The notes under the pieces: model-generated
What the model was told of the DNA's origin: nothing
The model's database searches: none
The model's input: only the letters and a program-made list of their open reading frames with translations
Shown: piece by piece, positions 13,167 to 55,892 of the stretch
How the letters are laid out: every line of letters begins with the position of its first letter
Position numbering within the stretch: position 1 is the first letter of the stretch
Source: Escherichia coli
GTDB lineage: Bacteria; Pseudomonadota; Gammaproteobacteria; Enterobacterales; Enterobacteriaceae
Assembly: GCF_009931435.1 (NCBI RefSeq)
Contig: NZ_CP043414.1
Direction: 5' to 3' (one strand)
Length of the DNA: 64,000 nt
Program-made: the position numbers and the translations under genes

Positions 13167-13392
13167 GATCGATATAAAAGATCGATAATTTGTTATTGAT
13201 AGATAATAACGATTGAAAGCGCGATATCGATCGGTGCTTAATTGTTATTATCGATCGAATATCTATTTATGATAGTTGTAAGCTATCGTGCGGTCGTTTT
13301 TGATCGTTTTAAACGATATGACGAGACGCTAAAAGAATTGAATCCTATCAATTGGTTAAGCGGTGGTTTTGCCATGTGATATCAGCCGGATC
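13167..13392. promoter_or_regulatory. Divergent intergenic region with six GATC (Dam) sites and several short palindromes
   Basis: GATC at 13167, 13180, 13229, 13253, 13302 and 13389 within ~225 bp, between divergently oriented envelope-protein genes. Confidence 0.5.
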
Positions 13393-13464
13393 CCGCAACA
13401 ACTCTAGCCCTGACCGGATTAGGTCAAAAATTTAGGCACTTTGATTATCAGGATGGATAAGCAG

Positions 13465-13995
13465 ATGAAGAAGATTTTACTCGTTGCTGGCGCAGCTCTG
13501 GCACTGGCGGGATGTGGTGAGAAAGGTGAGTTTGAGAAAGCGATTAATGCCAAGATTGGGCAAGACAAATACTGCTTCTCGCTGGATAACAATAACACCA
13601 GCTTCCCTATCCGTCTTGCCAAGCCACTACTTGATTCGACTGGCACAGGGACGAATTCAGTGATCCTCGATGGTTTTATTGAGCAGGGCCTGATGGTTTT
13701 TGAGCAGGGTTATGATTCGAATGTATTAGGGATAACAGAGGAAGGCAAAAAAGCCAAAGTCTGGAGCACAACAGACGGTGCCTGTGTTGGTCGTCGTGCT
13801 GTTGACGATATTAAGGAATGGACTGAGCCGGGCAACGGTAATCAGAAAGTCGTTCGCGTGTCTTATACGTGGAAGCTGGTTGACGTTCCGGGCTGGATTG
13901 ACAAAAAAGCGTTCGCCAACGTCAAAGGAATGAATGAACCTGCTGATGGTGCAATAAATCTCGTTAAAACCAGTAATGGCTGGAGAGCTAACTAA
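13465..13995 (+). CDS. Lipoprotein, hypothetical (176 aa)
   Basis: Signal/lipobox MKKILLVAGAALALAGC. Confidence 0.6.
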   Translation: MKKILLVAGAALALAGCGEKGEFEKAINAKIGQDKYCFSLDNNNTSFPIRLAKPLLDSTGTGTNSVILDGFIEQGLMVFEQGYDSNVLGITEEGKKAKVWSTTDGACVGRRAVDDIKEWTEPGNGNQKVVRVSYTWKLVDVPGWIDKKAFANVKGMNEPADGAINLVKTSNGWRAN

Positions 13996-14087
13996 AAGGA
14001 TGCTGGATCGTTAAATGCCCCTGCTACGCTGTGGAAAGTGACAGAAGGGGCATGAATTGTATTTCATTTAATGTAGTGAATGATATT

Positions 14088-14663
14088 TTATTGTATCGAT
14101 TTGTTAGATACTTTCATCAATTTCTCTTGAATTTTTCTTATTCTTTCAAGTTCTTCAACAATGGGATTTTTCTCGCCTTCACTTTGCATGAAAGGGCTTA
14201 AGTCTATATTGTTTTTTTCAACAACTTCTTTATTCATATAACTGTACGTTGCGGTTATTGTAAATTGTTGTGGTAACGGATTTTTCGATTCTCCAAAAAT
14301 AACCCAACCTTGACCAAGGGCGAAGAATAACTCTTGATTGGGCGCTAAGCTATCAATAGTCGATGTAAAAATACTTGTTTCTTTTAGGTTTTTAGTTGGC
14401 TCATCGAACTGATAAAAATCCTTATCTAATTCTAATTTTACATTCAGGGCTGGTGTCTTACCGCTATTATAAATTTTCAGGTATAGGAATTGCGAGTGAG
14501 GTCTTACCATTGGCTGGATTATTATATAAGGACGAGACATTGCCTCGGTTTGCTCATTCATTATCTGAGCTGTTCGTTCGCTTATTCTCGACATCTTGTA
14601 TGTCAAAAATGCATAAATTCCTGTAATGATAACAAGAATTGCTGTAAGTATTTCCATTGTCAT
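14088..14663 (-). CDS. Single-pass membrane protein, hypothetical (191 aa)
   Basis: AGGAG RBS 6 nt upstream of ATG; N-terminal TM helix ILTAILVIITGIYAFLTY. Confidence 0.6.
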   Translation of the reverse strand: MTMEILTAILVIITGIYAFLTYKMSRISERTAQIMNEQTEAMSRPYIIIQPMVRPHSQFLYLKIYNSGKTPALNVKLELDKDFYQFDEPTKNLKETSIFTSTIDSLAPNQELFFALGQGWVIFGESKNPLPQQFTITATYSYMNKEVVEKNNIDLSPFMQSEGEKNPIVEELERIRKIQEKLMKVSNKSIQ

Positions 14664-20246: not shown

Positions 20247-21998
20247 TTATGAGGTTTGTAATAAAGAGAAGGCGTCATCCAATAGAATTTTCTCGCTATT
20301 GTTTATCTCTTTATTTAATAGAAATGATCTCACTGATTTTGCATTACCGATACAAATTTGTTTCGCTTTTCCTGCGAAATATTTCTTATTTATTTCATTG
20401 ATATCAAAAAGTGGATTGTCATTAATTTCGTTTTTTTTATATTCTGCTACGGTAAATAGCATTTGCTCATTATTACCAGATTCATTTCCTAAGAACTTAA
20501 AAATAAGATCTCTATTTCCAATATCTATATCTTCTTTGAATATAGCATCTAACAAAAATGGAAATTTATGGATTGTTTTTCTTTTATTGATTAATTTAAT
20601 AAAGGAAAAATGATAAGCCATGATTATTTTATGTAATTCAACCCCTTGGAAGGGGAAGGATGTAATGGAATAAAGATTTTGATACCTTGGATTATTAGGT
20701 ATTATTATCTTCAAAGCTTTTGCTTTTTCGCTGAAAATAGTTAAAAATTCCTTGTCAATGTTGTTTCGGAGAGAGTTAATTTGTGAATCTGTGAGTAGGT
20801 TGTCAATTTGGGTGTTAAGGTTTGATATTTTTTCGACATAATTAGCTTCTTTAATTTTAATATCATTTAAAATGGTGATATTTGCACGGTGATTAACCCA
20901 ATGGTCAAAGTCAATATTTTCGATTCTCGATTCTTTTAACACCTCATACTCAAGCTTTATTTTTTCACTATCGTGTTTGATCTTTCTTTCAACAGAATTT
21001 AATGATGACGAAACATTTTTAATTTCTTCAGTTATACGTTCTTTTTCTCGTAACGCATCGTTAATATCTTGAGTATAGATATATAATTGTCTAAGATCGC
21101 CGGGTAGCGTTTGTTCGCATACAGGACATGTGTCAACGCTGGGTTTTTGAAGTTTTAAATTTCGAATAGTTTGTAAAAGTACTTTTTGACGCCCACGTAA
21201 CATACTGAGTTTATTGCATAGTTTTTCATAATTAGCTTCTTCCGTAATCAGATTTTCTGCTAATATGTTGTATTTTTTTAAGTAATCAATTGCTTCCCCT
21301 TTGAATCGAGACTCTAATATCTCAGAGATTTTAAGAGAGCTATCTTTTGTTTTGTATTGAATTAATTGCTCTCTTTCATATTCAATTTGTTGTTTTTCTT
21401 TTTGCAACATATATTTTTGCAATCTGTCCGTACGATCTTTTATGCCTGCGTAGTAATCAAGGTAGTCATATTTGAAGTCTTTATAAAATCTATAATCACC
21501 TATTGATTCTCTTAGATAAACCCAACCAACAGATTGAGATATATAGAATGGCAAGAATGCAGCTTCTATCGGTGCATCAGTAAACTTAGTTTGGTTCTGT
21601 AATGTTAGATTAAAGTCAAATAAGTGGTTAAATAATTTTTTGTATCTTGCATATTCATATGAGTTATTTCCATTAATGCCATCAAACCGTAGGGGGACTC
21701 TATCATCAATGCGAACGACGAGAGTATCATCAAATCGAACAAATACAACCGTATGAGATGATTTTACTTTTATTATTTCACACTCAAGACGAAAGAGTAC
21801 TCTTTCTGTAAGAATGTCGTGCAAATTTTCTTTGGAATCATTAACACCCATTGTGTACAAAATTGATTGCATTAATGTACTTTTCCCTGATGTGTTCCTC
21901 CCGTGAATAATATTGACTGAGTCACCAAAATCAGTGCAAAAAAAACCTTTATTATTCATAGAGTATGCTAAAATGCTTTTCAGAATTAATTTAGACAT
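20247..21998 (-). CDS. SMC/Rad50-like ABC ATPase with coiled coil and CxxC hook (Lamassu LmuB-like)
   Basis: Walker A GRNTSGKST near N-terminus; long heptad-rich middle; CPVCEQ in mid-protein; start ATG 21998 with GAGGAA RBS overlaps upstream stop (ATGTCTAA). Confidence 0.65.
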   Translation of the reverse strand: MSKLILKSILAYSMNNKGFFCTDFGDSVNIIHGRNTSGKSTLMQSILYTMGVNDSKENLHDILTERVLFRLECEIIKVKSSHTVVFVRFDDTLVVRIDDRVPLRFDGINGNNSYEYARYKKLFNHLFDFNLTLQNQTKFTDAPIEAAFLPFYISQSVGWVYLRESIGDYRFYKDFKYDYLDYYAGIKDRTDRLQKYMLQKEKQQIEYEREQLIQYKTKDSSLKISEILESRFKGEAIDYLKKYNILAENLITEEANYEKLCNKLSMLRGRQKVLLQTIRNLKLQKPSVDTCPVCEQTLPGDLRQLYIYTQDINDALREKERITEEIKNVSSSLNSVERKIKHDSEKIKLEYEVLKESRIENIDFDHWVNHRANITILNDIKIKEANYVEKISNLNTQIDNLLTDSQINSLRNNIDKEFLTIFSEKAKALKIIIPNNPRYQNLYSITSFPFQGVELHKIIMAYHFSFIKLINKRKTIHKFPFLLDAIFKEDIDIGNRDLIFKFLGNESGNNEQMLFTVAEYKKNEINDNPLFDINEINKKYFAGKAKQICIGNAKSVRSFLLNKEINNSEKILLDDAFSLLQTS

Positions 21999-40795: not shown

Positions 40796-41917
40796 ATGGT
40801 TGCTGAATTGACCGCATTACGCGATCAAATTGATGAAGTCGATAAAGCGCTGCTGAATTTATTAGCGAAGCGTCTGGAACTGGTTGCTGAAGTTGGCGAG
40901 GTGAAAAGCCGCTTTGGACTGCCTATTTATGTTCCGGAGCGCGAGGCATCTATGCTGGCCTCGCGGCGTGCAGAGGCGGAAGCTCTGGGTGTACCGCCAG
41001 ATCTGATTGAGGATGTTTTGCGTCGGGTGATGCGTGAATCTTACTCCAGTGAAAACGACAAAGGATTTAAAACGCTTTGTCCGTCTCTGCGTCCGGTGGT
41101 TATCGTCGGTGGTGGCGGTCAGATGGGACGTCTGTTCGAGAAGATGCTGGCACTCTCGGGTTATCAGGTGCGGATTCTGGAGCAACATGACTGGGATCGA
41201 GCGGCTGATATTGTTGCCGATGCCGGAATGGTGATTGTTAGTGTGCCCATCCACGTTACTGAACAGGTTATTGGCAAATTACCGCCTTTACCGAAAGATT
41301 GTATTCTGGTCGATCTGGCATCGGTGAAAAATGGACCATTACAGGCCATGCTGGCGGCGCATGATGGTCCGGTGCTGGGGTTACACCCGATGTTCGGCCC
41401 GGACAGCGGTAGCCTGGCAAAGCAAGTTGTGGTCTGGTGTGATGGACGTAAGCCGGAAGCATACCAATGGTTTCTGGAGCAAATTCAGGTCTGGGGCGCT
41501 CGGCTGCATCGTATTAGCGCTGTCGAGCACGATCAGAATATGGCGTTTATTCAGGCACTGCGCCACTTTGCTACTTTTGCTTATGGGCTGCACCTGGCAG
41601 AAGAAAATGTTCAGCTTGAGCAACTTCTGGCGCTTTCTTCGCCGATTTACCGCCTTGAGCTGGCGATGGTTGGGCGACTGTTTGCCCAGGATCCGCAACT
41701 GTATGCCGACATTATTATGTCGTCAGAGCGTAATCTGGCGTTAATCAAACGTTACTATAAGCGTTTCGGCGAGGCGATTGAGTTGCTGGAGCAGGGCGAT
41801 AAGCAGGCGTTTATTGACAGTTTCCGCAAGGTGGAGCACTGGTTCGGCGATTACGCACAGCGTTTTCAGAGTGAAAGCCGCGTGTTATTGCGTCAGGCGA
41901 ATGACAGTCGCCAGTAA
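40796..41917 (+). CDS. tyrA: Chorismate mutase / prephenate dehydrogenase (TyrA)
   Basis: 373-aa product [30 protein letters not shown]... Confidence 0.97.
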
Positions 41918-41959: not shown

Positions 41960-43120
41960 TTATGCCGGATCGACTGGTACCACATTCTCGCTTGGGTAAC
42001 AGCCCAGGACTTTCATCGAGCGAGTGATTTCACCTAGCTCTTTCAACGCCTGTTGCATTTCCGCTGATTCCAGATTGGCCTGAATATCCAGATAAAACAT
42101 CTCTTCCCACGGGTTTCCGTGAATCGGGCGTGATTCCAGACGGGTCATAATCAGATTGTGGTTGCGCAGTACCAGCAACGCTTCAACCAGCGCACCAGCT
42201 TGTTGTCCGGTCGCCATTAACAACGTCGTTTTCGCCGGAACCTGGTCAGAAACGTTAATGGCTTTACGTGCCAACACCACAAATCGGGTGAAGTTTTGTC
42301 GCTGATTCGCTTCAATATGCTCCAGTACCTGCAAACCGTACAAAGTGCCGCCAGCTTCGCTTCCCAACGCAGCAACATGCGGTGATTTTGCCTGTGCAAC
42401 CTTTTCCATTGCCGCAGACGTACTTTCGGTATATTCAATCTTCCAGTGCGGATAACGATTAAGGAATTTGCTGCATTGCTGGAATGGCTGCGGATGGCTG
42501 TAGACCGTATTAATGGTGGATAAATCAGTAGTGCCGGAGACCAACAAACAATGATCGATAGTTAACGTCATCTCGCCAACAATCGACAAACTGGTATGTT
42601 GCAGCAGATCGTAAACGTCGTTTATGGCACCGGAGCTGGTATTTTCAATCGGTACGACGGCATAGTCGGCCTGGCCGGTTTCCACCTGATTAAAAATATC
42701 GGCAAATTTGGCGCAGCCACTTTCAATGAATTGCTCAAAGTGACGCGCAGCGTACTGACGAGCGGCAAGATGTGAATAGGAGCCTTTGGGGCCGAGAAAA
42801 GCGATGCGTGCTGAGTGCGGATTAATTTTATTGAGATGTTGCTGGAGCAGTGCCTGCTGAGTTAATACGGAATCTTCAATGATGAGTTGGAACAGGCGAG
42901 TAATGTAATGGGCGTCCAGATGGTGCACTTTACCGAGCGTAATTAATCTTTCCAGCAAATCGCGTTCGCGATCAATATCACGTACCGGGCGATGAGAGAG
43001 CAGTTTGGCTTTTCCCACCTCGACGGCCAGTTCGCGCCGCTCTGCCAGTAATGCTAATAATTTTTCATCCAGCGCGCTGATTTTCTCTCGCAGCGCCAGT
43101 AACGGGTTTTCCGATGTCAT
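41960..43120 (-). CDS. pheA: Chorismate mutase / prephenate dehydratase (PheA)
   Basis: 386-aa product [40 protein letters not shown]... Confidence 0.97.
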
Positions 43121-43141
43121 AGTGTTGCCTTTTTGTTATCA

Positions 43142-43172
43142 ATAAAAAAGGCCCCCCGGTTTGGGAGGCCTT
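43142..43172 (-). terminator. pheL-pheA attenuator terminator
   Basis: GC hairpin plus U-tract (minus strand: ggcctcccaaaccggggggcc ttttttatt) between pheL and pheA. Confidence 0.8.
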
Positions 43173-43218
43173 ATTGTTCGTCTTCGCATTCTGTTTCACA
43201 CGACGAAACGCCTCCCAT

Positions 43219-43266
43219 TCAGGGGAAGGTAAAAAAGAATGCGAAGAAAAACGGCGTGTGTTTCAT
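43219..43266 (-). CDS. pheL: pheA leader peptide PheL (MKHTPFFFAFFFTFP)
   Basis: 15-codon ORF with seven Phe codons immediately upstream of the attenuator. Confidence 0.9.
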   Translation of the reverse strand: MKHTPFFFAFFFTFP

Positions 43267-43349
43267 GTTTGTTTCCTTAGGTGACTTCAGTACAGTACCC
43301 GTACTGTTTTCTCGCTGTCAACAAAAAACGCGCCCGAAGGTGCGTTGTA

Positions 43350-43396
43350 AAACCCACTGAATTCAATGTTTTCCCTTTGTTTTCAGTGGGTTTTGT
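43350..43396. repeat. 13-bp perfect inverted repeat AAAACCCACTGAA / TTCAGTGGGTTTT just downstream of int; third AAAACCCAC copy at 43424; candidate int terminator and/or att arm site
   Basis: Seen directly in sequence at the prophage-chromosome junction. Confidence 0.5.
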
Positions 43397-43433
43397 TATT
43401 GGTGGGGGTTACTGATTACCCTATAAAACCCAC

Positions 43434-44456
43434 TTATGTGGATGAAATGTGGATGCCTCCTTTTAACGGATTAAGTGAAATTGCATCCTGGAGGAAATCA
43501 GGAGCGAGGTGCGCATAGGTCATAGTTTGCTGGATCGTGGCGTGCCCCATAATTCGCTGGAGCGTAAGTATATTTCCTCCATTAATCATAAAGTGAGCAG
43601 CAAAGGTATGGCGTAGAACATGTACAGCCTGTCCTTTTGGTAGGTCTGGCTTAACACTGCGAAGCACCTTGCGATATTCCTCATAATTGACGTCAAACAA
43701 AAGGCCGGATTTCTTTGTTTTGATCTCACTAACAACTTCATCAGAGACAGGAATAATTCGAACTTTTCCGTTTTTAGTTTTGTTAAACGTCACGCGATTA
43801 TTGATGATGTGTTCCGCGCGCAGATTTTTCGCTTCTCCCCATCTCGCCCCAGTACTGAGACAAAGTAGCGTAATCCGCCGGGCATCACCGCTTACTGCAT
43901 CCAGTAATTTGGCGATTTCTTCCATGGTGAGATACGTCATTTCGGGTGATTTTCGTTTCAAAGAGGGGAGGGCGCGGAGCGGATTTTCTCCGTGAAATTC
44001 CCCGGCATTTGCCAGGAGTGTAAACATTCCTCCGAGATCCGACTCATCACGCCGAACAGTAGACTCTTTTACTCCCAAAGATAAACGGGAGCTTCGATAA
44101 GCGGCCATGAAACGAGCATTAATCTGGCTAACCCTTGGATCATTCATTTCTTTGATGATTTTTTTCAACCTGGTTAGAACGCCGTTAGCATATGGCTTAT
44201 TGCGTCCACCCAATTCCCACCATAACGGAAGCAGATCTGAGAGATGACGTTGCTCTGTTGGCTTTTCAAGCCATTCCTTATCGTGCATGTGGCTGAGAAC
44301 ATAACGCTCAAAGGCCACTGCATCTGCCTTTTTCTTAAAAATCCGCTGAATCCGACGTCCACTTCGGCCACGCGGTCTAACATCCACTTTATACCGTCCA
44401 CCATCGAGCGCTTTAATTGCCATTGGCAAGCCCTCCGGTGAAACGAGGAAAGACAT
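43434..44456 (-). CDS. int: Phage tyrosine integrase (P2-type)
   Basis: 340 aa; catalytic region ...HVLRHTFAAHFMINGGNILTLQRIMGHATIQQTMTYAHL (R-H-x-x-R...Y). Confidence 0.9.
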   Translation of the reverse strand: MSFLVSPEGLPMAIKALDGGRYKVDVRPRGRSGRRIQRIFKKKADAVAFERYVLSHMHDKEWLEKPTEQRHLSDLLPLWWELGGRNKPYANGVLTRLKKIIKEMNDPRVSQINARFMAAYRSSRLSLGVKESTVRRDESDLGGMFTLLANAGEFHGENPLRALPSLKRKSPEMTYLTMEEIAKLLDAVSGDARRITLLCLSTGARWGEAKNLRAEHIINNRVTFNKTKNGKVRIIPVSDEVVSEIKTKKSGLLFDVNYEEYRKVLRSVKPDLPKGQAVHVLRHTFAAHFMINGGNILTLQRIMGHATIQQTMTYAHLAPDFLQDAISLNPLKGGIHISST

Positions 44457-44489
44457 TTCCAGTTTGTAAAACGTAAGAATAATAAAGGG

Positions 44490-44792
44490 TTAGCCAATTT
44501 TCCTTTCGGATGGGGGTAAGTCCGTTGGCTCTTGCCCATAGTGTGCGAGAGCCGGAGCTATCTGCCCGGATTCAGGCGCAATTTTCCCAGTCATAAACCA
44601 CAACGCATATTTCTCAAATCTGGGGTTGTTTAGTATTTGCTCAATTACTTCAGCATTAGGGATAGTTTTACCGCTTTCATATCTCCACAGAGCATCACGG
44701 TTTAAACCAAGCATTTTTGCTGTATCCGGGAGGCTAGTAAGTCTCTCGCTTTCACGCATGATTTTTATGCGCTCTCCAATAGTCATACGCAT
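44490..44792 (-). CDS. Phage immunity repressor (C/CI-like, XRE-type HTH)
   Basis: Product MRMTIGERIKIMRESERLTSLPDTAKMLGLNRDALWRYESGKT; divergent from the cox-like gene. Confidence 0.75.
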   Translation of the reverse strand: MRMTIGERIKIMRESERLTSLPDTAKMLGLNRDALWRYESGKTIPNAEVIEQILNNPRFEKYALWFMTGKIAPESGQIAPALAHYGQEPTDLPPSERKIG

Positions 44793-44887
44793 GTTGCAAT
44801 TCTCCAACGTCTGTATTAATGTTTATACAAATGAGTTTGATTTGGGGCATCCGTCGCAAGAAATACCCCAAACAGGGAGATTATCAC
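44793..44887. promoter_or_regulatory. Lysis-lysogeny switch region (face-to-face repressor and early promoters expected)
   Basis: ~95-bp gap between divergent repressor and cox-like genes, as in P2/186. Confidence 0.5.
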
Positions 44888-45214
44888 ATGAATGAAGAAC
44901 TATTGAGGGCATTGTTTAAGATCCCAGACCCCATCACCGTCGATGAGTTTTCCCGCCGTACAGGTAAGACCGAATCAGCCGTAAGAAAGTTGGTAGAGCG
45001 TCGACTCATCCCTCTAACTACTGAGCGCGAGGTTTTAGGCGAGGAAGGGAGTTCGCGCCGTCTTCTCATCCTTTGGAATGAGTGGCTCGAAATGGTCTAT
45101 GACGCAACGAAACAGCTTCCTCCTGAGCGTAAAGATTGGCGCAATCACTGGCTTAAGAAAGCCAAGAAGCTGGCGGAAGATTTGGGATTAGGCTTTCTTA
45201 ATTTTGCTGCATGA
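44888..45214 (+). CDS. Cox-like early regulator/excisionase (putative)
   Basis: First early-operon gene, 108 aa, AGGGAG RBS; assignment mainly by position. Confidence 0.45.
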   Translation: MNEELLRALFKIPDPITVDEFSRRTGKTESAVRKLVERRLIPLTTEREVLGEEGSSRRLLILWNEWLEMVYDATKQLPPERKDWRNHWLKKAKKLAEDLGLGFLNFAA

Positions 45215-45232
45215 GATGCAGGGAGTTTTGAT

Positions 45233-45574
45233 ATGAAACAGCAACGTAATTCACGCTTTCGTAATGGTGCTGAACGCCACGCTAACCGTTTCGCTACCAG
45301 TGCATCACGCAGCAACATCCGCTACAGCCTGAGTGATACACACGCAACGCCGGATGGCTACCCAGTAAAACAAATCGGCGAGCACGCTTGGCTGATTGAG
45401 AAAGCTGGAATCGTGATCCACAAATGCCCACGCAATCCGTTTACCGGAAACCGCATTTTTGCATTGAGCTGTGGCGACAATCAGTTTGGGCAGGATTTCA
45501 CATTATACGAAGCACTTCGCACGGTTGATCGTCTGCTTCGCGGGCAAAGTTTTATTAAACAGGCTGATTTATAA
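45233..45574 (+). CDS. Hypothetical phage protein (113 aa)
   Basis: Early-operon ORF. Confidence 0.5.
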   Translation: MKQQRNSRFRNGAERHANRFATSASRSNIRYSLSDTHATPDGYPVKQIGEHAWLIEKAGIVIHKCPRNPFTGNRIFALSCGDNQFGQDFTLYEALRTVDRLLRGQSFIKQADL

Positions 45575-47537: not shown

Positions 47538-47750
47538 ATGAACAAAAAGACCTGGTTTCGCGCATACATGTGGGCGCTGGTATGCGTCCTCGTTTCTCTC
47601 ATTCTGTATGTGGGGCTACTTCCCAGAATGATTTCATCAGACAGCTCCTTCCTGGTATTGCTGGGCATTTTTGTCGCCTTGCTGTACCCGGCGGGCGTTG
47701 TTCGCTTTTTCAGTAACTACATCAAAGCAATTATGGAAACCAAACAATGA
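47538..47750 (+). CDS. Small membrane protein (70 aa, two hydrophobic helices)
   Basis: WALVCVLVSLILYVGLL and FLVLLGIFVALLYPAGVV segments; stop overlaps next start. Confidence 0.5.
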   Translation: MNKKTWFRAYMWALVCVLVSLILYVGLLPRMISSDSSFLVLLGIFVALLYPAGVVRFFSNYIKAIMETKQ

Positions 47751-48571
47751 AAAAACTATTACCACTCATCCCTCTCCTGATGACCACACTTCTGGTTGGC
47801 TGTGACCGCGTGGAGCCGGGCAATGTAGGCATCAAAGTCAACAAACTGGGCGACGATAAAGGCGTCGGTGAAGTAGTTGGCGTTGGCCGCTACTGGACAG
47901 GCTGGAATACAGAGGTTTACATCTTCCCGACTTTCAAACAAATGAAGACTTACGATGAGCCGTTCAACTTCCAGATGAGTGACGGCACAACCATCGGCTA
48001 TCACATCGGCGTGGCCTACAAAGTTGATCCATCCAAAGTTACCACTGTGTTTCAGACCTACCGCAAAGGCGTGGATGACATTACCGACACTGACCTGCGC
48101 CAGAAGATCGCCGATGCACTCAACCGACTGGCCAGCAAAATGACCACCGATAAGTTTATCGACGGTGGCAAGTCTGAACTGCTGGATTCAGCACTTAAAG
48201 ACATTCAGTCAGAAATGACACCTATCGGCATTCAGGTCATGAGCCTCTCTTATGTCGGTAAACCGGAATATCCGCCAACCGTTATCGACAGCATTAACGC
48301 CAAAGTCACGGCAAACCAGAAAACCCTGCAACGCGAACAGGAAGTCAAGCAACGCGAAGCAGAAGCCAACATGTTGCGCGCAGAAGCTGCCGGACAGGCT
48401 GATGCCATTCGCACAAAAGCCCAGGCTGAAGCCGACGCCATTCGTTTACGCGGTGAAGCTCTGCGCCAGAATCCCGGCGTTATGGAGCTGGAAGCAATCA
48501 ACAAATGGAACGGCACGCTGCCGCAATACATGACCAGCAACACCGCTGTTCCGTTTGTTCCGGTGAAGTAA
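47747..48571 (+). CDS. SPFH/band-7 (prohibitin/HflC-like) domain lipoprotein
   Basis: Lipobox LLVGC; central band-7-like region; C-terminal Ala/Glu/Gln-rich coiled coil (REQEVKQREAEANMLRAEAAGQADAIRTKAQAEADAIR). Confidence 0.65.
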   Translation: MKKLLPLIPLLMTTLLVGCDRVEPGNVGIKVNKLGDDKGVGEVVGVGRYWTGWNTEVYIFPTFKQMKTYDEPFNFQMSDGTTIGYHIGVAYKVDPSKVTTVFQTYRKGVDDITDTDLRQKIADALNRLASKMTTDKFIDGGKSELLDSALKDIQSEMTPIGIQVMSLSYVGKPEYPPTVIDSINAKVTANQKTLQREQEVKQREAEANMLRAEAAGQADAIRTKAQAEADAIRLRGEALRQNPGVMELEAINKWNGTLPQYMTSNTAVPFVPVK

Positions 48572-49615: not shown

Positions 49616-52438
49616 ATGACGGCAGAGTACATCAGGGACTGGCAACAACCGCGCCACGCAGTGGGGCGTGAAGGAACGGGGATCCCCGCTCCTGAATCCG
49701 CGCTTTCCTCCTGGCTGGATGCCTACCGGGTAGAGAACGAGCGCCGCCAGGAAATGGCTGATGCGGCGTTCTCCGCCACGCCGCTGGGCAACCTGATTAA
49801 TAAAAGCCTGGACGCACAGGAAAAACAGGACAAAACCATCACACTGGCAGGAGACGCCAGAAAACAGGCACGCGGCGCAGTGGATGAAGCCATGACCTCG
49901 CTGCGCCTGCTGCCGTCCTATCTGCGCGATCCGCTTATTCGCCACCTCTCCTTCCTGCGCAAAAAACAGGAAGCCGATCGCCGGAAAGGCAAAAAGAGCT
50001 GGCAGGCGGAACGCTATGCACGCGGAACCCTGCGCAAAATATTCGAACGTCTGGACCGCACCGATCACCGCTGGCTGACACCGGGTTATCGCTCCCTTGC
50101 CGGACGCGAACGCCTGGACGATTTGCTTTACCTGCCGCAGCTCAACAAACACCAGATACAGACGCTGGCCACCATGACGGCGGCGATGTTCAGCAGCACC
50201 TTCGAAAAACTCTGCGATGGCTTTGGCGCGACTGATGGCGAACTGACCATGGATGTAACGCTGAAGGCGTATCAGATGCTGGCCCGCATGGCGTTACACC
50301 TGCACGCCATGCCTCCACATTATGACGCACTGACAACAGACAAAGACCGGAGGAACGAACCGGACACAGAGCTGCTGCCGGGCGCAATCCTTCGCCTGAC
50401 CTGTGCGGAATGGTGGAAACGCAAACTGTGGCTGTTACGTTGCGAGTGGCGGGAAGAACAACTCCGCGCCGCCTGTCTGGTTTCCAGAAAAACATCGCCC
50501 TATCTGAGCCAGGACGCGTTAAGCGAGTTTCGCGCACAGCGCGAGAAAACACGCGATTTCCTGAAAAGTTTCATGCTGGAAAACGAAGACGGGTTCACGA
50601 TTGATCTCGAGACAGTGTATTACGCGGGAGTAAGTAACCCGGTTCACCGTAAGGCAGAAATGATGGCCACCATGAAGGGACTGGAACTTCTGGCCGAAGC
50701 CCGTGGCGACAGAGCGGTGTTTCTGACTGTCACCTGCCCGTCAAAATACCACGCAACAACGGAGAACGGTCATCCGAACCCCAAATGGAACGGGGCCACC
50801 ATGCGCGACTCCAGCGATTACCTGGTTAACACGTTTTTTGCGGCGGTCCGCAAAAAACTGAACCGCGACGGCCTGCGCTGGTATGGCATCCGCACGGTGG
50901 AGCCTCACCATGACGGCACCGTGCACTGGCATATGATGGTCTTTGCTCATCCGGAAGAAATCGACAGCATCGTGGCCATCACCCGCGATATTGCCATTCA
51001 GGAAGACCGCCACGAGCTGGGCAATGATATTACTCCGCGCTTTAAAGTGGAGTATGTCGACGGCTCAAAAGGCACACCAACCAGCTATATCGCGACCTAC
51101 ATCGGGAAAAACCTGGACAGCCGCGCCGTGGATGGCATCGACCCGAAAACGGGCAAACCACGCGTTGACCACGAAACCGGAAAGTCAATGGCCGAGAGCG
51201 TGGAACGCGCCATCGGCTGGGCGCGCCTTCACCGTGTCCGCCAGTTCCAGTTCTTTGGTATCCCCTCCCGTCAGGTGTGGCGTGAACTGCGTCGCCTTGC
51301 CAGCCAGATGGCACGCAACCCGGAAGGCCCGCAACAGCTGAAGGATGACGCAATGGATGCGGTACTCGCTGCCGCTGATGCCGGATGTTTTGCCACCTAC
51401 ATAGAGAAACAGGGCGGCGTTCTTGTTCCACGCAAAGACTACCTGATTCGCACCGCCTACGACCTCGCAGATGAGCTGAACGATTACGGCGAACAGAGCG
51501 TACAGATTTACGGGATCTGGTCGCCACTCATCGGGGAATCCTCCCGTGTGTGCACGCATCCGGATAACTGGAAGCTGGTAAGACGTAAACCGGAAACGGA
51601 AGACAGCGCCCGCGAAAATGGTTTTGACCTTCAGGGCGGCCCTGCCGCCCCTTGGACTCGTGGCAATAACTGTCCCCGTGTACAGGAAACGGACAACAAC
51701 GGGACAGAACAGCCGGAAGAACGGCCAGCACCGTGGCCGCAGCTTCCTGACAGCGTTGACGTGAATGAATGGATGCGCTCACTGAAACGGCACGAACGCC
51801 GGGCGCTGATGCGTTCGCTGCGTGACAAACAGGCAAAAAACAGCAGTGATGAAATGCAGAACTGGACACAGAGCCGCAAACAGCCACGGCCTTTGCCTGA
51901 TAACCACGAGTTACTCGCTAAAGAATGGCGGGAGTCTGCTGAATCTCTCGGCCTGCATATTGGTGAACAGCAGATGCAGCACCTGTTACGGGGCGGCAGT
52001 CTGTACGTTGACGGCAGCATCATTGCACCGCAGGGATTTGAAATTGTACGCAAACCGGATACCCGCCCGGACAGCCGAATCACGCAGCTCTGGCAGCGCC
52101 TGAGCCGTAATCACGGCGTAAGCAGCACGGGGATCCGCCATAACCCGGTCGCCAGCTATCTGGAACAGCTGGGGGCATCAGACCCCGAAGCCGCCGCACG
52201 CCTGGCATCCACACTTCAGCAGGACCAGAACACCATGAAAACCCCCGTTACCGTGCTTTCTGACATGCTGCGCGCCATCCGTGACGCAGAGCACGCACAG
52301 AGAATCAGTGAAACAACTGAACGCGCCCGCCGCAAAGCAGACCTGCTGCGGGGTGGCCTGACCAGTGGAAACAAAAAACAGACAAAAACAGGATTCACAA
52401 ATCCCGTAAATGAGCAAAAAACGCGCCGTGATATATGA
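49616..52438 (+). CDS. Phage replication initiation protein (P2 gpA-family rolling-circle endonuclease), 940 aa
   Basis: HUH-type motif region VEPHHDGTVHWHMMVF; position after the early operon. Confidence 0.8.
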   Translation: MTAEYIRDWQQPRHAVGREGTGIPAPESALSSWLDAYRVENERRQEMADAAFSATPLGNLINKSLDAQEKQDKTITLAGDARKQARGAVDEAMTSLRLLPSYLRDPLIRHLSFLRKKQEADRRKGKKSWQAERYARGTLRKIFERLDRTDHRWLTPGYRSLAGRERLDDLLYLPQLNKHQIQTLATMTAAMFSSTFEKLCDGFGATDGELTMDVTLKAYQMLARMALHLHAMPPHYDALTTDKDRRNEPDTELLPGAILRLTCAEWWKRKLWLLRCEWREEQLRAACLVSRKTSPYLSQDALSEFRAQREKTRDFLKSFMLENEDGFTIDLETVYYAGVSNPVHRKAEMMATMKGLELLAEARGDRAVFLTVTCPSKYHATTENGHPNPKWNGATMRDSSDYLVNTFFAAVRKKLNRDGLRWYGIRTVEPHHDGTVHWHMMVFAHPEEIDSIVAITRDIAIQEDRHELGNDITPRFKVEYVDGSKGTPTSYIATYIGKNLDSRAVDGIDPKTGKPRVDHETGKSMAESVERAIGWARLHRVRQFQFFGIPSRQVWRELRRLASQMARNPEGPQQLKDDAMDAVLAAADAGCFATYIEKQGGVLVPRKDYLIRTAYDLADELNDYGEQSVQIYGIWSPLIGESSRVCTHPDNWKLVRRKPETEDSARENGFDLQGGPAAPWTRGNNCPRVQETDNNGTEQPEERPAPWPQLPDSVDVNEWMRSLKRHERRALMRSLRDKQAKNSSDEMQNWTQSRKQPRPLPDNHELLAKEWRESAESLGLHIGEQQMQHLLRGGSLYVDGSIIAPQGFEIVRKPDTRPDSRITQLWQRLSRNHGVSSTGIRHNPVASYLEQLGASDPEAAARLASTLQQDQNTMKTPVTVLSDMLRAIRDAEHAQRISETTERARRKADLLRGGLTSGNKKQTKTGFTNPVNEQKTRRDI

Positions 52439-52514: not shown

Positions 52515-53474
52515 ATGAAAATTTGTATCGACGACGGATCCACCAACATCAAGCTGGCATGGACTGAGAACGGCGAACGCCGCAACGCCATCAGCCCGAA
52601 CAGCTTCAAGTCAGAATGGTCTGCGCCGTTCGGTGGCACGCAGCCCGCGAACTACATGCTTGATGGCGTGCGCTATGGTTTTGATCCGGTCAGCGATCGC
52701 TTTGTCCAGACGACCGACACGCAATACCAGTACAGCGATGTGAATGTCATTGCCATTCATCATGCGCTGGTCAAATCAGGCATCACGCCACAGGAGGTGG
52801 ATGTGGTTGTCACCCTGCCACTGAGCGAGTATTTCGACACAAACGCACAGCCGGACATGGCCAACATCAACCGCAAAAAAGCGAACGTTATGCGCCCGGT
52901 GGAGTACCAGAACGGCGAGGCATTCACTATCCGTAACGTGCGGGTTATGCCTGAATCCATTCCGGCTGGCTTTAAAGCACTGGCTGACATGAGTCCGTTT
53001 GAATCCCTGCTGATTGTGGATTTGGGCGGAACCACGCTGGATGTGGCAAAGGTTCAGGGGCAACTGGCAGGTATCAGCCAGGTGTTTTGCGATCCACACG
53101 TAGGCGTTTCCCTGATGGCCGATGCCGTACTGTCGGTAATGGCCACTAACGGTATGCGCACCAGTCACCACATCGCCAATACCATTATCGAACATCGCCA
53201 CGATGAAGCCTGGCTGCGCCAGCACATCCACAATAACGCACATTACGCCAGCCTGATGGCTGTTATTCGTGAAAAGGAAGAAACACTGAAACAACGCGTG
53301 ATCCGCGCGCTGGCGGGTTTTTCGGGTTACGGGCGGGTGATGGTTGTAGGTGGAGGGGCAGAGATTGTGGCACCCGCTATCCGCGAAGCCTGCGGAGTTA
53401 ATGCGACTTTCATCGCGGACGGGGTGCCACAGTTTGCTCTGGTTAATGGGCTGTACGCAATGGACAAGGAGTAA
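52515..53474 (+). CDS. parM: ParM/StbA actin-like segregation ATPase
   Basis: Colinear similarity to plasmid R1 ParM: IDDGSTNIKL, ISPNSFK, YSDVNVIAIHHAL, RKKAN, VMPESIPAG, LLIVDLGGTTLD, GGGAE, LVNGLY. Confidence 0.85.
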   Translation: MKICIDDGSTNIKLAWTENGERRNAISPNSFKSEWSAPFGGTQPANYMLDGVRYGFDPVSDRFVQTTDTQYQYSDVNVIAIHHALVKSGITPQEVDVVVTLPLSEYFDTNAQPDMANINRKKANVMRPVEYQNGEAFTIRNVRVMPESIPAGFKALADMSPFESLLIVDLGGTTLDVAKVQGQLAGISQVFCDPHVGVSLMADAVLSVMATNGMRTSHHIANTIIEHRHDEAWLRQHIHNNAHYASLMAVIREKEETLKQRVIRALAGFSGYGRVMVVGGGAEIVAPAIREACGVNATFIADGVPQFALVNGLYAMDKE

Positions 53475-53478
53475 ATCA

Positions 53479-53793
53479 ATGACGACACCAACCAGACGGA
53501 TAAGTTTCTATCTGAAGCCCGCCGTCGTCAAGAGCGAACGGGAGGCGTGCAGTTACCTCGACAGCCTGCCAGCCTCCGAACGCAGCCGCGCACAACGCGC
53601 GGCTTTTCTGGCCGGACTGGCTCTTATAAAACGCACCCCCGCGTTGGCGTATTCGCTGGCAGAATGGTCAGAAGACGAAATACGGATGCCACCGCTACCA
53701 GTACAGCCTGAAAAACCGGCGCAACCAGCAGCAGACAGCGCCCCCCATATGCAGCAGGTGAAAAAGAATATTCAGGCGTTTTTCCCGAAGTGA
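53479..53793 (+). CDS. parR: ParR/StbB-like centromere-binding protein
   Basis: N-terminus RRISFYLKPAV...SYLDSLPASERSRAQRAAFLAGLALIKRTP resembles R1 ParR; immediately follows parM. Confidence 0.7.
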   Translation: MTTPTRRISFYLKPAVVKSEREACSYLDSLPASERSRAQRAAFLAGLALIKRTPALAYSLAEWSEDEIRMPPLPVQPEKPAQPAADSAPHMQQVKKNIQAFFPK

Positions 53794-53807
53794 AAACAGG
53801 AGTAACT

Positions 53808-54095
53808 ATGTCCACCATTACCAAAGAATGGTTACAACGTAAAATCACAGAGTTTAAATCGTGGCGCGAAGACATCCCGTTCGGTCTTGATGAAGACGAT
53901 CACAATATGTTAATCGCACTGGAAATCGCACTTGCATCACTGGAAGCAGAGCCAGTGGCATGGATGCACGCAAATAATCCTATTGGAATACCGGCGATAA
54001 CAAGAAGTAAAGATGTTGCAGACAGCTGGCGCTCTAAGGGATGGAATGTATTGCCTCTTTATTCACTGACCCGCTCCATCAATTTATGCCATTAA
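53808..54095 (+). CDS. Hypothetical protein (95 aa)
   Basis: ORF between parR-like and Rrf2-like genes. Confidence 0.45.
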   Translation: MSTITKEWLQRKITEFKSWREDIPFGLDEDDHNMLIALEIALASLEAEPVAWMHANNPIGIPAITRSKDVADSWRSKGWNVLPLYSLTRSINLCH

Positions 54096-54106
54096 TGGAA
54101 GTAATC

Positions 54107-54466
54107 ATGATGAAAGATAATTCCGGAAGCCAGCGTGCATCAGTTGCAGTTATGGTAATGATTAAATTTGTGAAACAGTACACCGGAAAGCCAATCTCGC
54201 TCCGGCAATTAAGCAAAGAAACCGTTTCACTGTCATATCTGGAGCAAATATTCAGATATTTACGGGAAAGTAGCCTGGTAAAAGCCACACGCGGCCCGGG
54301 TGGTGGATATATCCCGACAAAAGAAAATTACAGTGTTGGTGATATTGTCCGGGCAATGAAATGTTCCGGATTATATACACAGCACGTTATTCTGGCTGCA
54401 CTGGATAATATTTCTTTAACCAGCCTGCAGGAAGACACAAATTATCAGTTGTCTGCCATTGAATAA
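54107..54466 (+). CDS. Rrf2-family (IscR/NsrR-like) transcriptional regulator, apparently lacking the cluster-ligating Cys triad
   Basis: VSLSYLEQIFRYLRESSLVKATRGPGGGYIPTKENYSVGDIVRAM closely parallels the IscR core ISLSYLEQLF...GLV..VRGPGGGY; only one Cys in the C-terminal region. Confidence 0.7.
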   Translation: MMKDNSGSQRASVAVMVMIKFVKQYTGKPISLRQLSKETVSLSYLEQIFRYLRESSLVKATRGPGGGYIPTKENYSVGDIVRAMKCSGLYTQHVILAALDNISLTSLQEDTNYQLSAIE

Positions 54467-54534
54467 GAAAACCCGGAACGGGTGCGCAAATTCTTTGTGC
54501 GCCCGTTCCGGGTTGGACAAGCGAAGCGCGTCAG

Positions 54535-54792
54535 CTATCCGGCCTGCAACAACTCCAGAGCCATTTGTTTTTCTTCCGGACGCATCCGCTCAATCAACAG
54601 CTTTAACACACCATTCTCCAGCCCGCTGGGCACCAGTGTGTGCGAGTAGGTCAGATTCATCACCCAGGTATGTCCGCACTCGAGACGGGTGCAACGGTAA
54701 TACACATCAGCAAACTGATCGGTTTTCCAGGCTGTTTTCTCAATCACTGCATGTGCACCGCAGCAATGACATCGCGCTTTCTGTCTGCGCAT
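54535..54792 (-). CDS. Ogr/Delta-family zinc-finger late-gene activator (putative)
   Basis: CHCCGAHAV...YYRCTRLECGHTWVM (C-x2-C ... C-x4-C); GGAGG RBS upstream of ATG 54792. Confidence 0.6.
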   Translation of the reverse strand: MRRQKARCHCCGAHAVIEKTAWKTDQFADVYYRCTRLECGHTWVMNLTYSHTLVPSGLENGVLKLLIERMRPEEKQMALELLQAG

Positions 54793-54857
54793 TTTCCACC
54801 TCCCGGAACAGCGTTTTACTGCCACCGATTTTACCCGCTCTTTCCCCATACCGCACA

Positions 54858-55892
54858 TCACTCCATGGGTTCATCAAAATCAAGAATAAATTTCACCTCC
54901 CCCAGTCGTCTGATATCCGGGTCGCTGTTGATCCCCTCCATAATCAGGCGGCGCATCGGGATAACCTCATCCCTGTAATATGCCTCGCGGGATTTCAGTG
55001 GGTCACCAAGCCCGGCCGTATTTGCGGGAATGATGCCGGCAAGCCCGGGTGGAAAACGGTGCGCAACGAGCTGATCCTGGGCACTGATAGTTTTTATATT
55101 CAGGAACTCATCTTTTGTACCTGAATCTCCGATAGGGATCACCTTAACGCCTTCTTTGTCTCCGCCAGGTATATTGATAAACATGGATTTAAAATTGCCC
55201 GCCCCTTTTGACGCCTCTATCTTTTTACGGAATTCCGCCTCGAGCTCGGGATCCATGTCCGGGTCAGTGGAATACAGGATATAACCAAGATGTGCGCCGT
55301 TCTTGTAATACTTGCGGCGAAAGCGGGTGGCATCCACATTCAGCATGGCAGATTCCATCCCGTGAATATAATCCGGGACACCGTAAACCTGCTGTTGCGG
55401 GTCATAAATGGCCACGAACACTACTTCGCCTGGCGGGTAAACGAGATCTTCCAGTGCCGCCTGCACAATCACCGTGCCACCCTCGTTGTTACGCCGCAGG
55501 TACAGAGAAGGTAACGTATGCAGGCGCACCACTCGACCGAAGCCATTGCGCACTTTAAGCAACCCCATATCCCCGAATATCAGCAGATTGGTTACTGCTG
55601 CCGCCATGGCGGCGTGTGTCATACCACCACCCCCCCGAAAACCCTGCATGATCATATTGACGCGCGCACGCAATACCGCGCCGTGATACGGTGCGATATT
55701 GGACAACATGGCGAGATCCATGCGCTCAATGGGCGGCGTGTACCAGCCGTTATAGCCATCCCAGAGCGAGCCGTAATAACAGCCCCATGCAGCGACCGGT
55801 TCCGGGTCACCAAATTCAATAAAAGTCATTTTGCTGGCTGTTTTTTTTGCCACGCCATCGTGTAACACGGGGTATTTTTTCTTTTTACTCAT
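54858..55892 (-). CDS. Phage portal protein (P2 gpQ-like)
   Basis: 344 aa, same length and position as P2 Q, translationally coupled to the terminase gene. Confidence 0.75.
   Translation of the reverse strand: MSKKKKYPVLHDGVAKKTASKMTFIEFGDPEPVAAWGCYYGSLWDGYNGWYTPPIERMDLAMLSNIAPYHGAVLRARVNMIMQGFRGGGGMTHAAMAAAVTNLLIFGDMGLLKVRNGFGRVVRLHTLPSLYLRRNNEGGTVIVQAALEDLVYPPGEVVFVAIYDPQQQVYGVPDYIHGMESAMLNVDATRFRRKYYKNGAHLGYILYSTDPDMDPELEAEFRKKIEASKGAGNFKSMFINIPGGDKEGVKVIPIGDSGTKDEFLNIKTISAQDQLVAHRFPPGLAGIIPANTAGLGDPLKSREAYYRDEVIPMRRLIMEGINSDPDIRRLGEVKFILDFDEPME

Follow-up and report, generated by a model that had tools for sequence, protein, structure and literature searches.

The question raised by this locus is what a short protein with the DNA-binding core of an iron-sulfur regulator, and without the cluster ligands of that regulator, would be doing at the end of the early operon of an Escherichia coli prophage. 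The window (the whole stretch of DNA analysed here, 64,000 nt) contains two Peduoviridae prophages, that is, a P2-like prophage at ssrA (position 1 to ~22,300) and a P88-like prophage (Xuanwuvirus) next to pheA, which begins with an integrase at 40892. The window is identical in sequence to record NZ_CP074819.1 of E. coli strain 7_33_46A, whose positions minus 1,325,778 give those used here. The gene, which will be named hereafter mini-Rrf2, belongs to the second of these: it follows rep, parM, parR and an ORF of 95 aa, and it precedes the ogr and portal genes (Table 1). An earlier note on this DNA had described it as prophage-encoded and lying in the interval between rep and portal, and this location is borne out by its position after parM/parR and before the ogr/Delta-like gene.

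Table 1. Positions of the genes and elements discussed in the text, counted from the first nucleotide of the window
Feature	Position	Strand	Basis or remark
Replication endonuclease gene	49616-52438	+	P88-like early operon
ParM-like gene	52515-53474	+	PHROGs phrog_691/phrog_2515 partition proteins (ParM/ParR) and PGAP names
ParR-like gene	53479-53793	+	PHROGs phrog_691/phrog_2515 partition proteins (ParM/ParR) and PGAP names
95-aa Ea22/EaA-like mosaic ORF (WP_000104418)	53808-54095	+	AGGAG 6 nt upstream of ATG
mini-Rrf2 gene	54107-54466	+	119 aa from ATG 54107 (120 codons including stop)
Predicted recognition helix codons, residues 42-54, LSYLEQIFRYLRE	54230-54268	+	Helix 42-54 in AF2 model
Beta-wing codons, residues 58-70	54278-54316	+	AF2 model strands 58-61 and 67-70
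Deletion site relative to IscR, between G88 and L89	54368-54373	+	Alignment with IscR, CymR and NsrR
Hairpin with 21-bp stem between the convergent mini-Rrf2 and ogr genes	54470-54514		Inverted repeat
ogr/Delta-like zinc-finger gene, right flank next to portal	54535-54792	-	phrog_603, PGAP name
Portal gene	54858-55892	-	Terminase beyond

The product had been given as a 120-aa protein. The ORF is real, but the protein has 119 aa, a count of 120 being reached only when the stop codon is included. Its start at ATG 54107 is the RefSeq choice in four other genomes (WP_000974052) and fits the N-termini of the relatives in the family alignment. Two alternative starts lie upstream: one at 54041, which is the PGAP call in the present genome and falls inside the 95-aa ORF, would give 141 aa, and another at 54095 would give 123 aa via a TAATG stop/start overlap at 54093-54097. 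Depending on the start chosen, the 95-aa ORF and mini-Rrf2 are either separated by 11 nt or overlap in that TAATG. The gene is already annotated in RefSeq as an Rrf2 regulator, and the motifs SLSYLEQIF and TRGPGGGY are both found in its product. Since undisrupted copies with at least 99.3% identity are present in 36 complete E. coli genomes, and since the gene has a family of relatives, mini-Rrf2 is a genuine gene and no chance ORF.

mini-Rrf2 is the last gene of the early operon and has no convincing promoter of its own, a promoter scan of positions 53300-55000 having returned a single weak sigma-70-like match (2.1 would be expected by chance), which falls within the 95-aa ORF. In the present genome the early operon is broken upstream of mini-Rrf2 by an IS66 element (ISEc23). 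On the other side, the hairpin between mini-Rrf2 and ogr has an RNA folding energy of -43.3 kcal/mol (z = -5.4) and is likely a terminator with a T-run on the minus strand only. The terminator-like match on that strand consists of just the inner 13 nt of the hairpin (54483-54471, with a 5-bp stem), followed by TTTCTTATTC.

The slot between the replication protein and the portal is the gpA-gpQ hotspot of P2-family phages, which is rich in defence systems; the supplementary table of Rousset et al. 2022 lists the exact arrangement seen around mini-Rrf2, which is not among the systems tested in that study as far as its text shows (PMC9122126). In P88, an O104:H4 prophage and strain MNCRE44 this slot is filled by three other sets of genes, so that four contents are seen when the present window is included. 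The parM-parR/rep backbone occurs in 1302 of 5426 complete E. coli genomes, and 36 of those 1302 continue into the mini-Rrf2 cargo; in these genomes the mini-Rrf2 gene is found in the cargo module and nowhere else. The GC content over the two cargo ORFs is 43%, as against 55-58% in the flanks. When five genomes were compared, the 740-bp cargo module showed 0-4 differing sites, 0-3 of them inside the mini-Rrf2 gene, where the changes amounted to three synonymous substitutions and one I-to-V replacement, the ORF remaining undisrupted in all five of these related prophages. Rep, ParM, Ogr and portal, by comparison, differ by about 1.5-11% (Ogr by 0-11%), and ParR, which abuts the cargo, by at most 1.6%. 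A near-invariant module on a diverged backbone indicates that the module moves between diverged backbones. mini-Rrf2 is optional cargo, placed last in a phage early operon.

Membership of the Rrf2 family, which had been proposed from the helix-turn-helix motifs, is supported at the domain level by a match to Pfam PF02082 (Rrf2; E 6.1e-13) that covers residues 8-88 of the protein and positions 2-85 of the 132-position model, and PF02082 is present in the precomputed annotation of all relatives. Scores against the curated families are lower. The best NCBIfam match is the IscR model TIGR02010, with 59.3 bits (below its cut-off of 207.55), while the IscR equivalog NF008110 gives 46.3 bits (cut-off 275) and the Rrf2 superfamily model TIGR00738 gives 53.5 bits (cut-off 73.3), the latter match stopping at profile position 87 of 132. 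mini-Rrf2 falls under the TIGR02010 and TIGR00738 cut-offs because the match ends at about profile position 85, and the TIGR00738 scores of 10 clade members, at 43-63.5 bits, are below the cut-off as well. In PHROGs the protein corresponds to phrog_24072 (E 1e-47; function unknown). Over 77 residues, all within the winged helix-turn-helix (wHTH), it is 40% identical to E. coli IscR, and the closest PDB sequences are the E. coli IscR entries 4hf0, 4chu and 4hf1.

The predicted structure points the same way. An AF2 monomer model built from the 23-member family alignment reached a pLDDT of 90.2 and a pTM of 0.81, and in a Foldseek search of this model against the PDB the top 36 matches were all Rrf2 proteins, the best being apo-IscR 4hf0 (E 2e-7, TM 0.72). 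BFVD held a single structural twin, M4M9K8 (111 aa, rmsd 2.2 Å). Judging from the profile matches and the model together, mini-Rrf2 is an Rrf2 protein at the level of domain and fold, and not a full-length member of the family. One feature that counts against an IscR-like reading is helix 1, which has diverged from that of IscR. The earlier note had seen in the protein an IscR/NsrR core. The IscR half of this description holds, in view of the top NCBIfam match and the same recognition-helix residues, whereas the NsrR half does not, with either no match or, among relatives, one of E ~3e-4. That is, NCBIfam searches of mini-Rrf2 gave zero matches to NsrR models at E <= 0.01, and an NsrR-like identity was rejected because the recognition helix differs from VSRNHMVKII, the three Cys for a [4Fe-4S] cluster are absent and there is no NsrR match.

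In an alignment of mini-Rrf2 and its phage homologues with IscR and NsrR of E. coli and CymR of B. subtilis, a gap of ~24 residues separates helix 4 of mini-Rrf2 from the last third of the dimer helix, and the same gap is found in its three closest phage homologues. The absent stretch corresponds roughly to residues 87-111 of IscR, which comprise the cluster ligands C92, C98, C104 and H107 together with the first half of the dimer helix. The numbering of the C92QGKGGC98 segment of IscR is confirmed by published work (PMC5411485). Beyond the gap, the tail of mini-Rrf2 (...LAALDNISLTSLQ) aligns with that of IscR (...LTGFLNNITLGEL). This IscR-like tail after the gap suggests that mini-Rrf2 is internally deleted and not C-terminally truncated. 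The protein had been described as lacking the Fe-S triad and retaining a single Cys, which is correct, and it has a single Cys because the ~24 residues that hold the cluster ligands of IscR are missing. The remaining one, C86, has a Cys counterpart in 5 of 23 clade members. Going by the alignment, mini-Rrf2 cannot bind a cluster in the manner of IscR or NsrR, the ligand loop being deleted and not mutated, and since the ligand-bearing residues are absent no holo form of it should be possible.

Set beside IscR (PDB 4HF0/4HF1/4CHU), mini-Rrf2 has the same wHTH fold and an identical wing (RGPGGGY), and the recognition helix reads SLSYLEQIF in the phage and SLSYLEQLF in IscR; the alignment also extends over helix 6 and the last part of the dimer helix. 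The phage protein differs in its length (119 versus 162 aa) and in being phage-located without an iscSUA neighbourhood. CymR of Bacillus and Staphylococcus (PDB 2Y75, 3T8R) resembles it in having the Rrf2 fold without an Fe-S cluster, and appears among both the sequence and the fold matches. However, the recognition helix of CymR reads SEHYLEQL, and mini-Rrf2 scores lower on CymR models than on IscR models. Full-length CymR has ~138 aa with a long dimer helix, and works with its partner CysK on genes of cysteine metabolism.

A word-indexed sequence search returned near-identical E. coli copies of mini-Rrf2, one relative of 104 aa at 51% identity, and, after these, ordinary IscR proteins whose ~40% identity is limited to the wHTH. 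An exhaustive profile search covering 1.84 billion representatives gave two tiers. The first consists of ~25 clusters at 50% identity, with proteins of 91-135 aa whose matches, scoring 84-152 bits, span all 112 positions of the profile; one of the first-tier calls has 160 aa, with an N-terminal extension of 30 residues. The second is a plateau of ordinary Rrf2 proteins, which match positions ~9-85 only, with at most 83 bits. By these scores, the mini-Rrf2 clade is a distinct and conserved group that stands above the ordinary Rrf2 plateau, and a conserved C-terminal motif is shared across it. TIGR02010 (IscR) was also the top NCBIfam match for 10 of 10 other clade members tested, and NsrR matches among those 10 were absent or, in three of them, at E ~3e-4.

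In the family alignment of 23 members, S41, S43, Y44, E46, G63, G66, G67, Y68 and L99 are invariant, and P29, L52, V58, P64, G65, V77, A98 and V102 nearly so. Residues S43, Y44, E46 and Q47 correspond to S40, Y41, E43 and Q44 of IscR, and the wing segment R62-G-P-G-G-G-Y68 corresponds to IscR R59-Y65. Q47 is kept in 20 of the 23 members, and position 62 is R in 19 and K in 3. The Cys triad occurs in none of the 23. After the wing no member has more than two Cys, 12 have none, and in 7 the whole protein is Cys-free.

All clade contexts examined are early regions of temperate phages or integrative islands of enterobacteria. In Citrobacter phage Chris1 the gene, annotated as an IscR-like "iron-sulfur cluster regulator", lies between the immunity region and recE/int, and in Klebsiella phage Kp4865-4 it adjoins int. 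Another member lies between the immunity region and xis/int of a prophage at icd, one in a metagenomic prophage is found two genes after a Band_7 protein and before int, and one on a small island follows a GhoT-like ORF. Further members sit in lambdoid replication modules, after DnaC-like and phrog_630/DUF1627-like genes. A search of phage records returned none with the mini-Rrf2 cargo at the DNA level. At five of the loci (L003, L005, L014, L018 and L021) the genes upstream and downstream show no relationship with the 95-aa ORF or with one another. The exception is a phrog_630/DUF1627-like protein found upstream in L003, L020 and probably L015, the last of these by gene size and position only. 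Since the neighbours are unrelated in these other contexts, the 95-aa ORF, which had been put forward as a partner of the regulator, is a neighbour and not a conserved partner. For the same reason an obligate two-gene system made up of the 95-aa ORF and mini-Rrf2 was rejected.

In IscR, residues S40, E43, Q44 and R59 contact type-2 DNA, and E43 makes a bidentate contact with CC dinucleotides that keeps apo-IscR off type-1 sites and sets the choice between type-1 and type-2 (PMC5411485). Because the base contacts of mini-Rrf2 equal those of IscR and the protein would never be holo, it should behave like a permanently apo IscR. An AF2 model of two copies of mini-Rrf2 in tandem, joined by a linker, had a pTM of 0.76, with 223 of 268 residues ordered and 45 disordered (linker and termini); this model was judged by its scores. 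As such a pTM would be hard to reach otherwise, the two halves appear to pack confidently, which would be consistent with a dimer. With half of the dimer helix gone, however, the two recognition helices may be spaced differently than in IscR, and the site that is read may therefore differ as well.

Taken as a whole, the reading that we tentatively favour, to which we give somewhat less than an even chance, is that mini-Rrf2 is a cluster-free, IscR-derived DNA-binding protein that acts on type-2-like sites, probably in the host. An IscR-like ancestor would have lost the Fe-S ligand loop and half of the long dimer helix, giving a small DNA-binding protein that keeps helix 1, the HTH, the wing and a short C-terminal helical tail. 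A mini-Rrf2 homodimer, which is probable, would then read IscR type-2-like sites (CC...GG) whatever the iron, sulfur or oxygen status of the cell. Its targets would most likely be host promoters under IscR control, e.g. for activation of suf or for repression of hya/hyb/nap-type promoters. It would act once the prophage is induced or a cell is infected, or else in the lysogen, should the gene have its own promoter. The suggestion of the earlier note that the protein could tune host IscR-regulated genes is thus plausible in view of the conserved contact residues.

Operators were sought with two literature consensus patterns only. The IscR type-2 pattern (ANNNCCNNANNNNNNNTANGGNNNT, with at most one mismatch) had 6 matches in the window against 11 expected, and the type-1 pattern had none in the window. 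The type-2 scan of the P88-like prophage and of six phage loci revealed no enrichment, and no match near mini-Rrf2-type genes. Since type-2 sites are not enriched in the phage DNA, and since the cargo is dispensable, we would place the targets in the host chromosome, with modest confidence.

The best placed of the alternatives, though an unlikely one, is that mini-Rrf2 is anti-phage or exclusion cargo, i.e. that it prevents early transcription in incoming phages, in competing ones or in satellites of the phage by binding to their DNA. Its slot is a documented defence-rich hotspot for which the exact arrangement has been listed (PMC9122126), the content of this slot differs among P88-like prophages, and the low-GC module moves between diverged backbones. 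The known cargo of the hotspot (tin, old and others) has the same position beside cos, with the replication protein on one side and the portal on the other, and likewise has foreign GC and variable content. Unlike that cargo, however, the present module matches no known defence system and consists of an Ea22-like ORF and a small protein resembling a transcription factor: PADLOC-DB 2.0 gave no family match at E <= 0.01 for either cargo protein, nor for ParM, ParR and Ogr. Moreover, the clade is found elsewhere in ordinary early-left or replication modules and not in defence hotspots, and the strict conservation of the IscR-type contacts argues for a fixed, cellular-type target and against fast-evolving phage targets. 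Should mini-Rrf2 nevertheless be an exclusion gene, it would add an unusual, transcription-factor-only cargo to the P2-family hotspot.

It is quite unlikely that mini-Rrf2 is a local regulator, which autoregulates or controls only the Ea22-like ORF, or else the phage early operon and parMR. In the Rrf2 family, regulation of adjacent genes is common, the two cargo ORFs are as tightly linked as described above and travel together in 36 of 36 genomes, and a 10-bp palindrome (CCATTAATGG) lies at the junction of the 95-aa ORF and mini-Rrf2. Against this, clade members have different neighbours in all other contexts, and the 95-aa ORF does not recur next to them. The early operon is also the same in P88-like phages that lack the module, so mini-Rrf2 is not a core regulator, and no IscR-type operator was found near the cargo module. 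The suggestion of the earlier note that the protein might control adjacent cargo thus gains nothing from the operator search of the prophage, which showed no enrichment of IscR type-1 or type-2 sites.

A little less likely again is an action at the protein level, in which mini-Rrf2 would pair with host IscR or a different Rrf2 protein in mixed dimers, or titrate a partner, and so poison a regulator without reading DNA. A dimeric regulator can be inhibited in dominant-negative fashion by a small truncated copy of itself, and the C-terminal tail can still be aligned with helix 6 of IscR and with the final part of its dimer helix (LAALDNISLTSL versus LTGFLNNITLGEL). A pure poison subunit, however, would not need invariant DNA-contact and wing residues, the 40% identity to E. 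coli IscR is low and does not extend beyond the wHTH, and the dimer helix lacks its first half. Finally, that mini-Rrf2 is merely a decaying, functionless fragment of a captured Rrf2 gene is very improbable: although it is shorter than all cellular Rrf2 proteins, below the curated family cut-offs and rare (36 of 5426 genomes), the same short architecture and C-terminal motif recur in ~25 clusters that share less than 50% identity, no copy examined has a disrupted ORF, the changes being three synonymous and one conservative, and the fold is confidently predicted.

To return to a cluster-free, IscR-derived protein acting in the host, its strongest form would be a phage-borne apo-IscR mimic that forces the host into a low-cluster programme (Suf on, Fe-S-rich respiratory enzymes off) at induction or in lysogeny. 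This further step is more doubtful than the general reading. IscR couples the supply of Fe-S clusters to ~40 E. coli genes, and to virulence programmes in several pathogens, and a phage gene that copies the DNA-reading surface of IscR without its sensor would be a simple override of the IscR circuit. If the mimic were real, it would be the first phage-encoded hijacker of the bacterial control of Fe-S homeostasis, and it could affect phage yield, Fe-S-dependent defences, virulence-gene control and the aminoglycoside tolerance of lysogens. The mini-Rrf2 clade also represents a naturally minimised Rrf2 scaffold of ~105 structured residues, which could be used for studies of apo-type dimerisation and site choice.

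Some of this was known before, in that the gene was annotated as an Rrf2 regulator, its arrangement in the hotspot was catalogued, and cluster-less Rrf2 regulators such as CymR had been described. What is new, as far as the searched literature shows, is a mini-IscR architecture that is restricted to phages, has an internal deletion and keeps the contact residues of IscR invariant; literature searches for Rrf2 or IscR in phages or prophages returned nothing relevant. The mentions of IscR met in the course of these searches concerned a control strain only.

The 95-aa ORF, for its part, had been called unknown. It has indeed no Pfam or NCBIfam match, and its matches in PHROGs (660, 60, 5117 and 3323) are all of unknown function, but it appears to be a mosaic relative of the lambdoid Ea22/EaA proteins. 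By tblastn it shares 55% identity over 85 aa with the 84-aa 'Ea22' of phage PhiR57_1, and piecewise its N-terminal part resembles P22-like EaA and its C-terminal part Ea22 of Stx/lambdoid phages. It may be compared with the small ORFs of the lambdoid ea/exo-xis region, and relatives of mini-Rrf2 are also found in such early-left regions; unlike those ORFs, the pair formed by the 95-aa ORF and mini-Rrf2 sits in a P2-family phage. The possibility that the 95-aa ORF is a paralogue of the prophage's own ead/Ea22-like gene was rejected, as the two show no similarity. The ORF is identical in the five genomes aligned, and its 5′ part recombines widely in E. coli, with partial matches in 664 genomes.

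Across the clade of the mini-Rrf2 gene, the phage-borne Rrf2/IscR-like gene lacking the Fe-S ligand loop, a single type of neighbour was seen to recur, a phrog_630/DUF1627-like protein (232-262 aa, with an N-terminal wHTH). Its gene lies directly upstream of mini-Rrf2 in three lambdoid replication-module contexts, the loci L003, L015 and L020, of which L003 and L020 were tested for phrog_630 membership while L015 was assigned from gene size and position. The P88-like prophage has a gene for an SPFH/Band_7-domain protein in its early operon, and another (4905-5627) lies two genes upstream of mini-Rrf2 in L018, an unrelated metagenomic prophage; this may be a coincidence. In L014, an icd-integrated prophage with the mini-Rrf2 protein P0127, two DndB-family (PF14072) genes (489-1514 and 6697-7806) stand on both sides of the early region; DNA sulfur modification could conceivably be linked to IscS/IscR biology.

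Features of the window and of related loci (coordinates are those of the sequence named)
Feature	Sequence	Coordinates	Strand	Context
P2-like prophage	window	1-22300		at ssrA
Acyltransferase-family gene	window	13181-14287	-	P2-like prophage
ogr of P2-like prophage	window	21516-21734		
P88-like prophage	window	40892-64000		beside pheA
ISEc23 (IS66 family: tnpA, tnpB, transposase)	window	43007-45423		P88-like prophage
SPFH/Band_7-domain protein gene	window	47747-48571		P88-like prophage, early operon
Actin-like ParM and ParR-like partition cassette	window	52515-53793		within integrated P2-family prophage
ogr/Delta-like zinc-finger gene	window	54535-54792	-	directly upstream of portal and terminase
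phrog_630/DUF1627-like gene	L003	1304-2032		upstream of mini-Rrf2
phrog_630/DUF1627-like gene	L015	1749-2537		upstream of mini-Rrf2
phrog_630/DUF1627-like gene	L020	2952-3650		upstream of mini-Rrf2

The start of mini-Rrf2 differs between public annotations, the candidates being positions 54041, 54095 and 54107. The window's own genome carries a 141-aa call (WP_231233101) that overlaps the 95-aa ORF, the Ea22/EaA-like upstream neighbour, while other genomes have the protein at 119 aa (WP_000974052), and the metagenomic call P0001 gives it 123 aa. At the junction of the two ORFs, a TAATG overlap (54093-54097) suggests that translational coupling would be possible. The first 160-200 nt of the 95-aa ORF (53808-53990) recur with 83-100% identity in hundreds of E. 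coli prophages, including those of O104:H4 and STEC306-308 (L006 4914-5345; hits H178-H197). Because this shared 5′ part is joined to different downstream sequences, the comparison shows that recombination breakpoints lie inside the ORF.

On the other side of mini-Rrf2, among the P88-like relatives compared, an ogr/Delta-like gene next to the portal and terminase genes was found only in the sub-lineage carrying mini-Rrf2; it was absent from this place in P88 and in the O104:H4 and MNCRE44 relatives. The end of this gene is marked by an unusually long, near-perfect 21-bp hairpin (54470-54514). The ParM/ParR-like cassette is common to 1302 of the 5426 complete E. coli genomes.

The 64-kb window holds two Peduoviridae prophages, separated by about 18 kb of core genes from smpB to pheA. 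In the P88-like one, close to the beginning of the early operon, ISEc23 has inserted into a DUF4761 gene, whose fragments remain on either side (42691-42918 and 45455-45574). Since the insertion may be polar on all downstream genes, including rep, parMR and mini-Rrf2, this prophage copy may be defective. In the P2-like one, the acyltransferase-family gene lies between the tail-fibre assembly and tail sheath genes in the opposite orientation, which is a typical moron position, and its role may lie in surface modification or lysogenic conversion.
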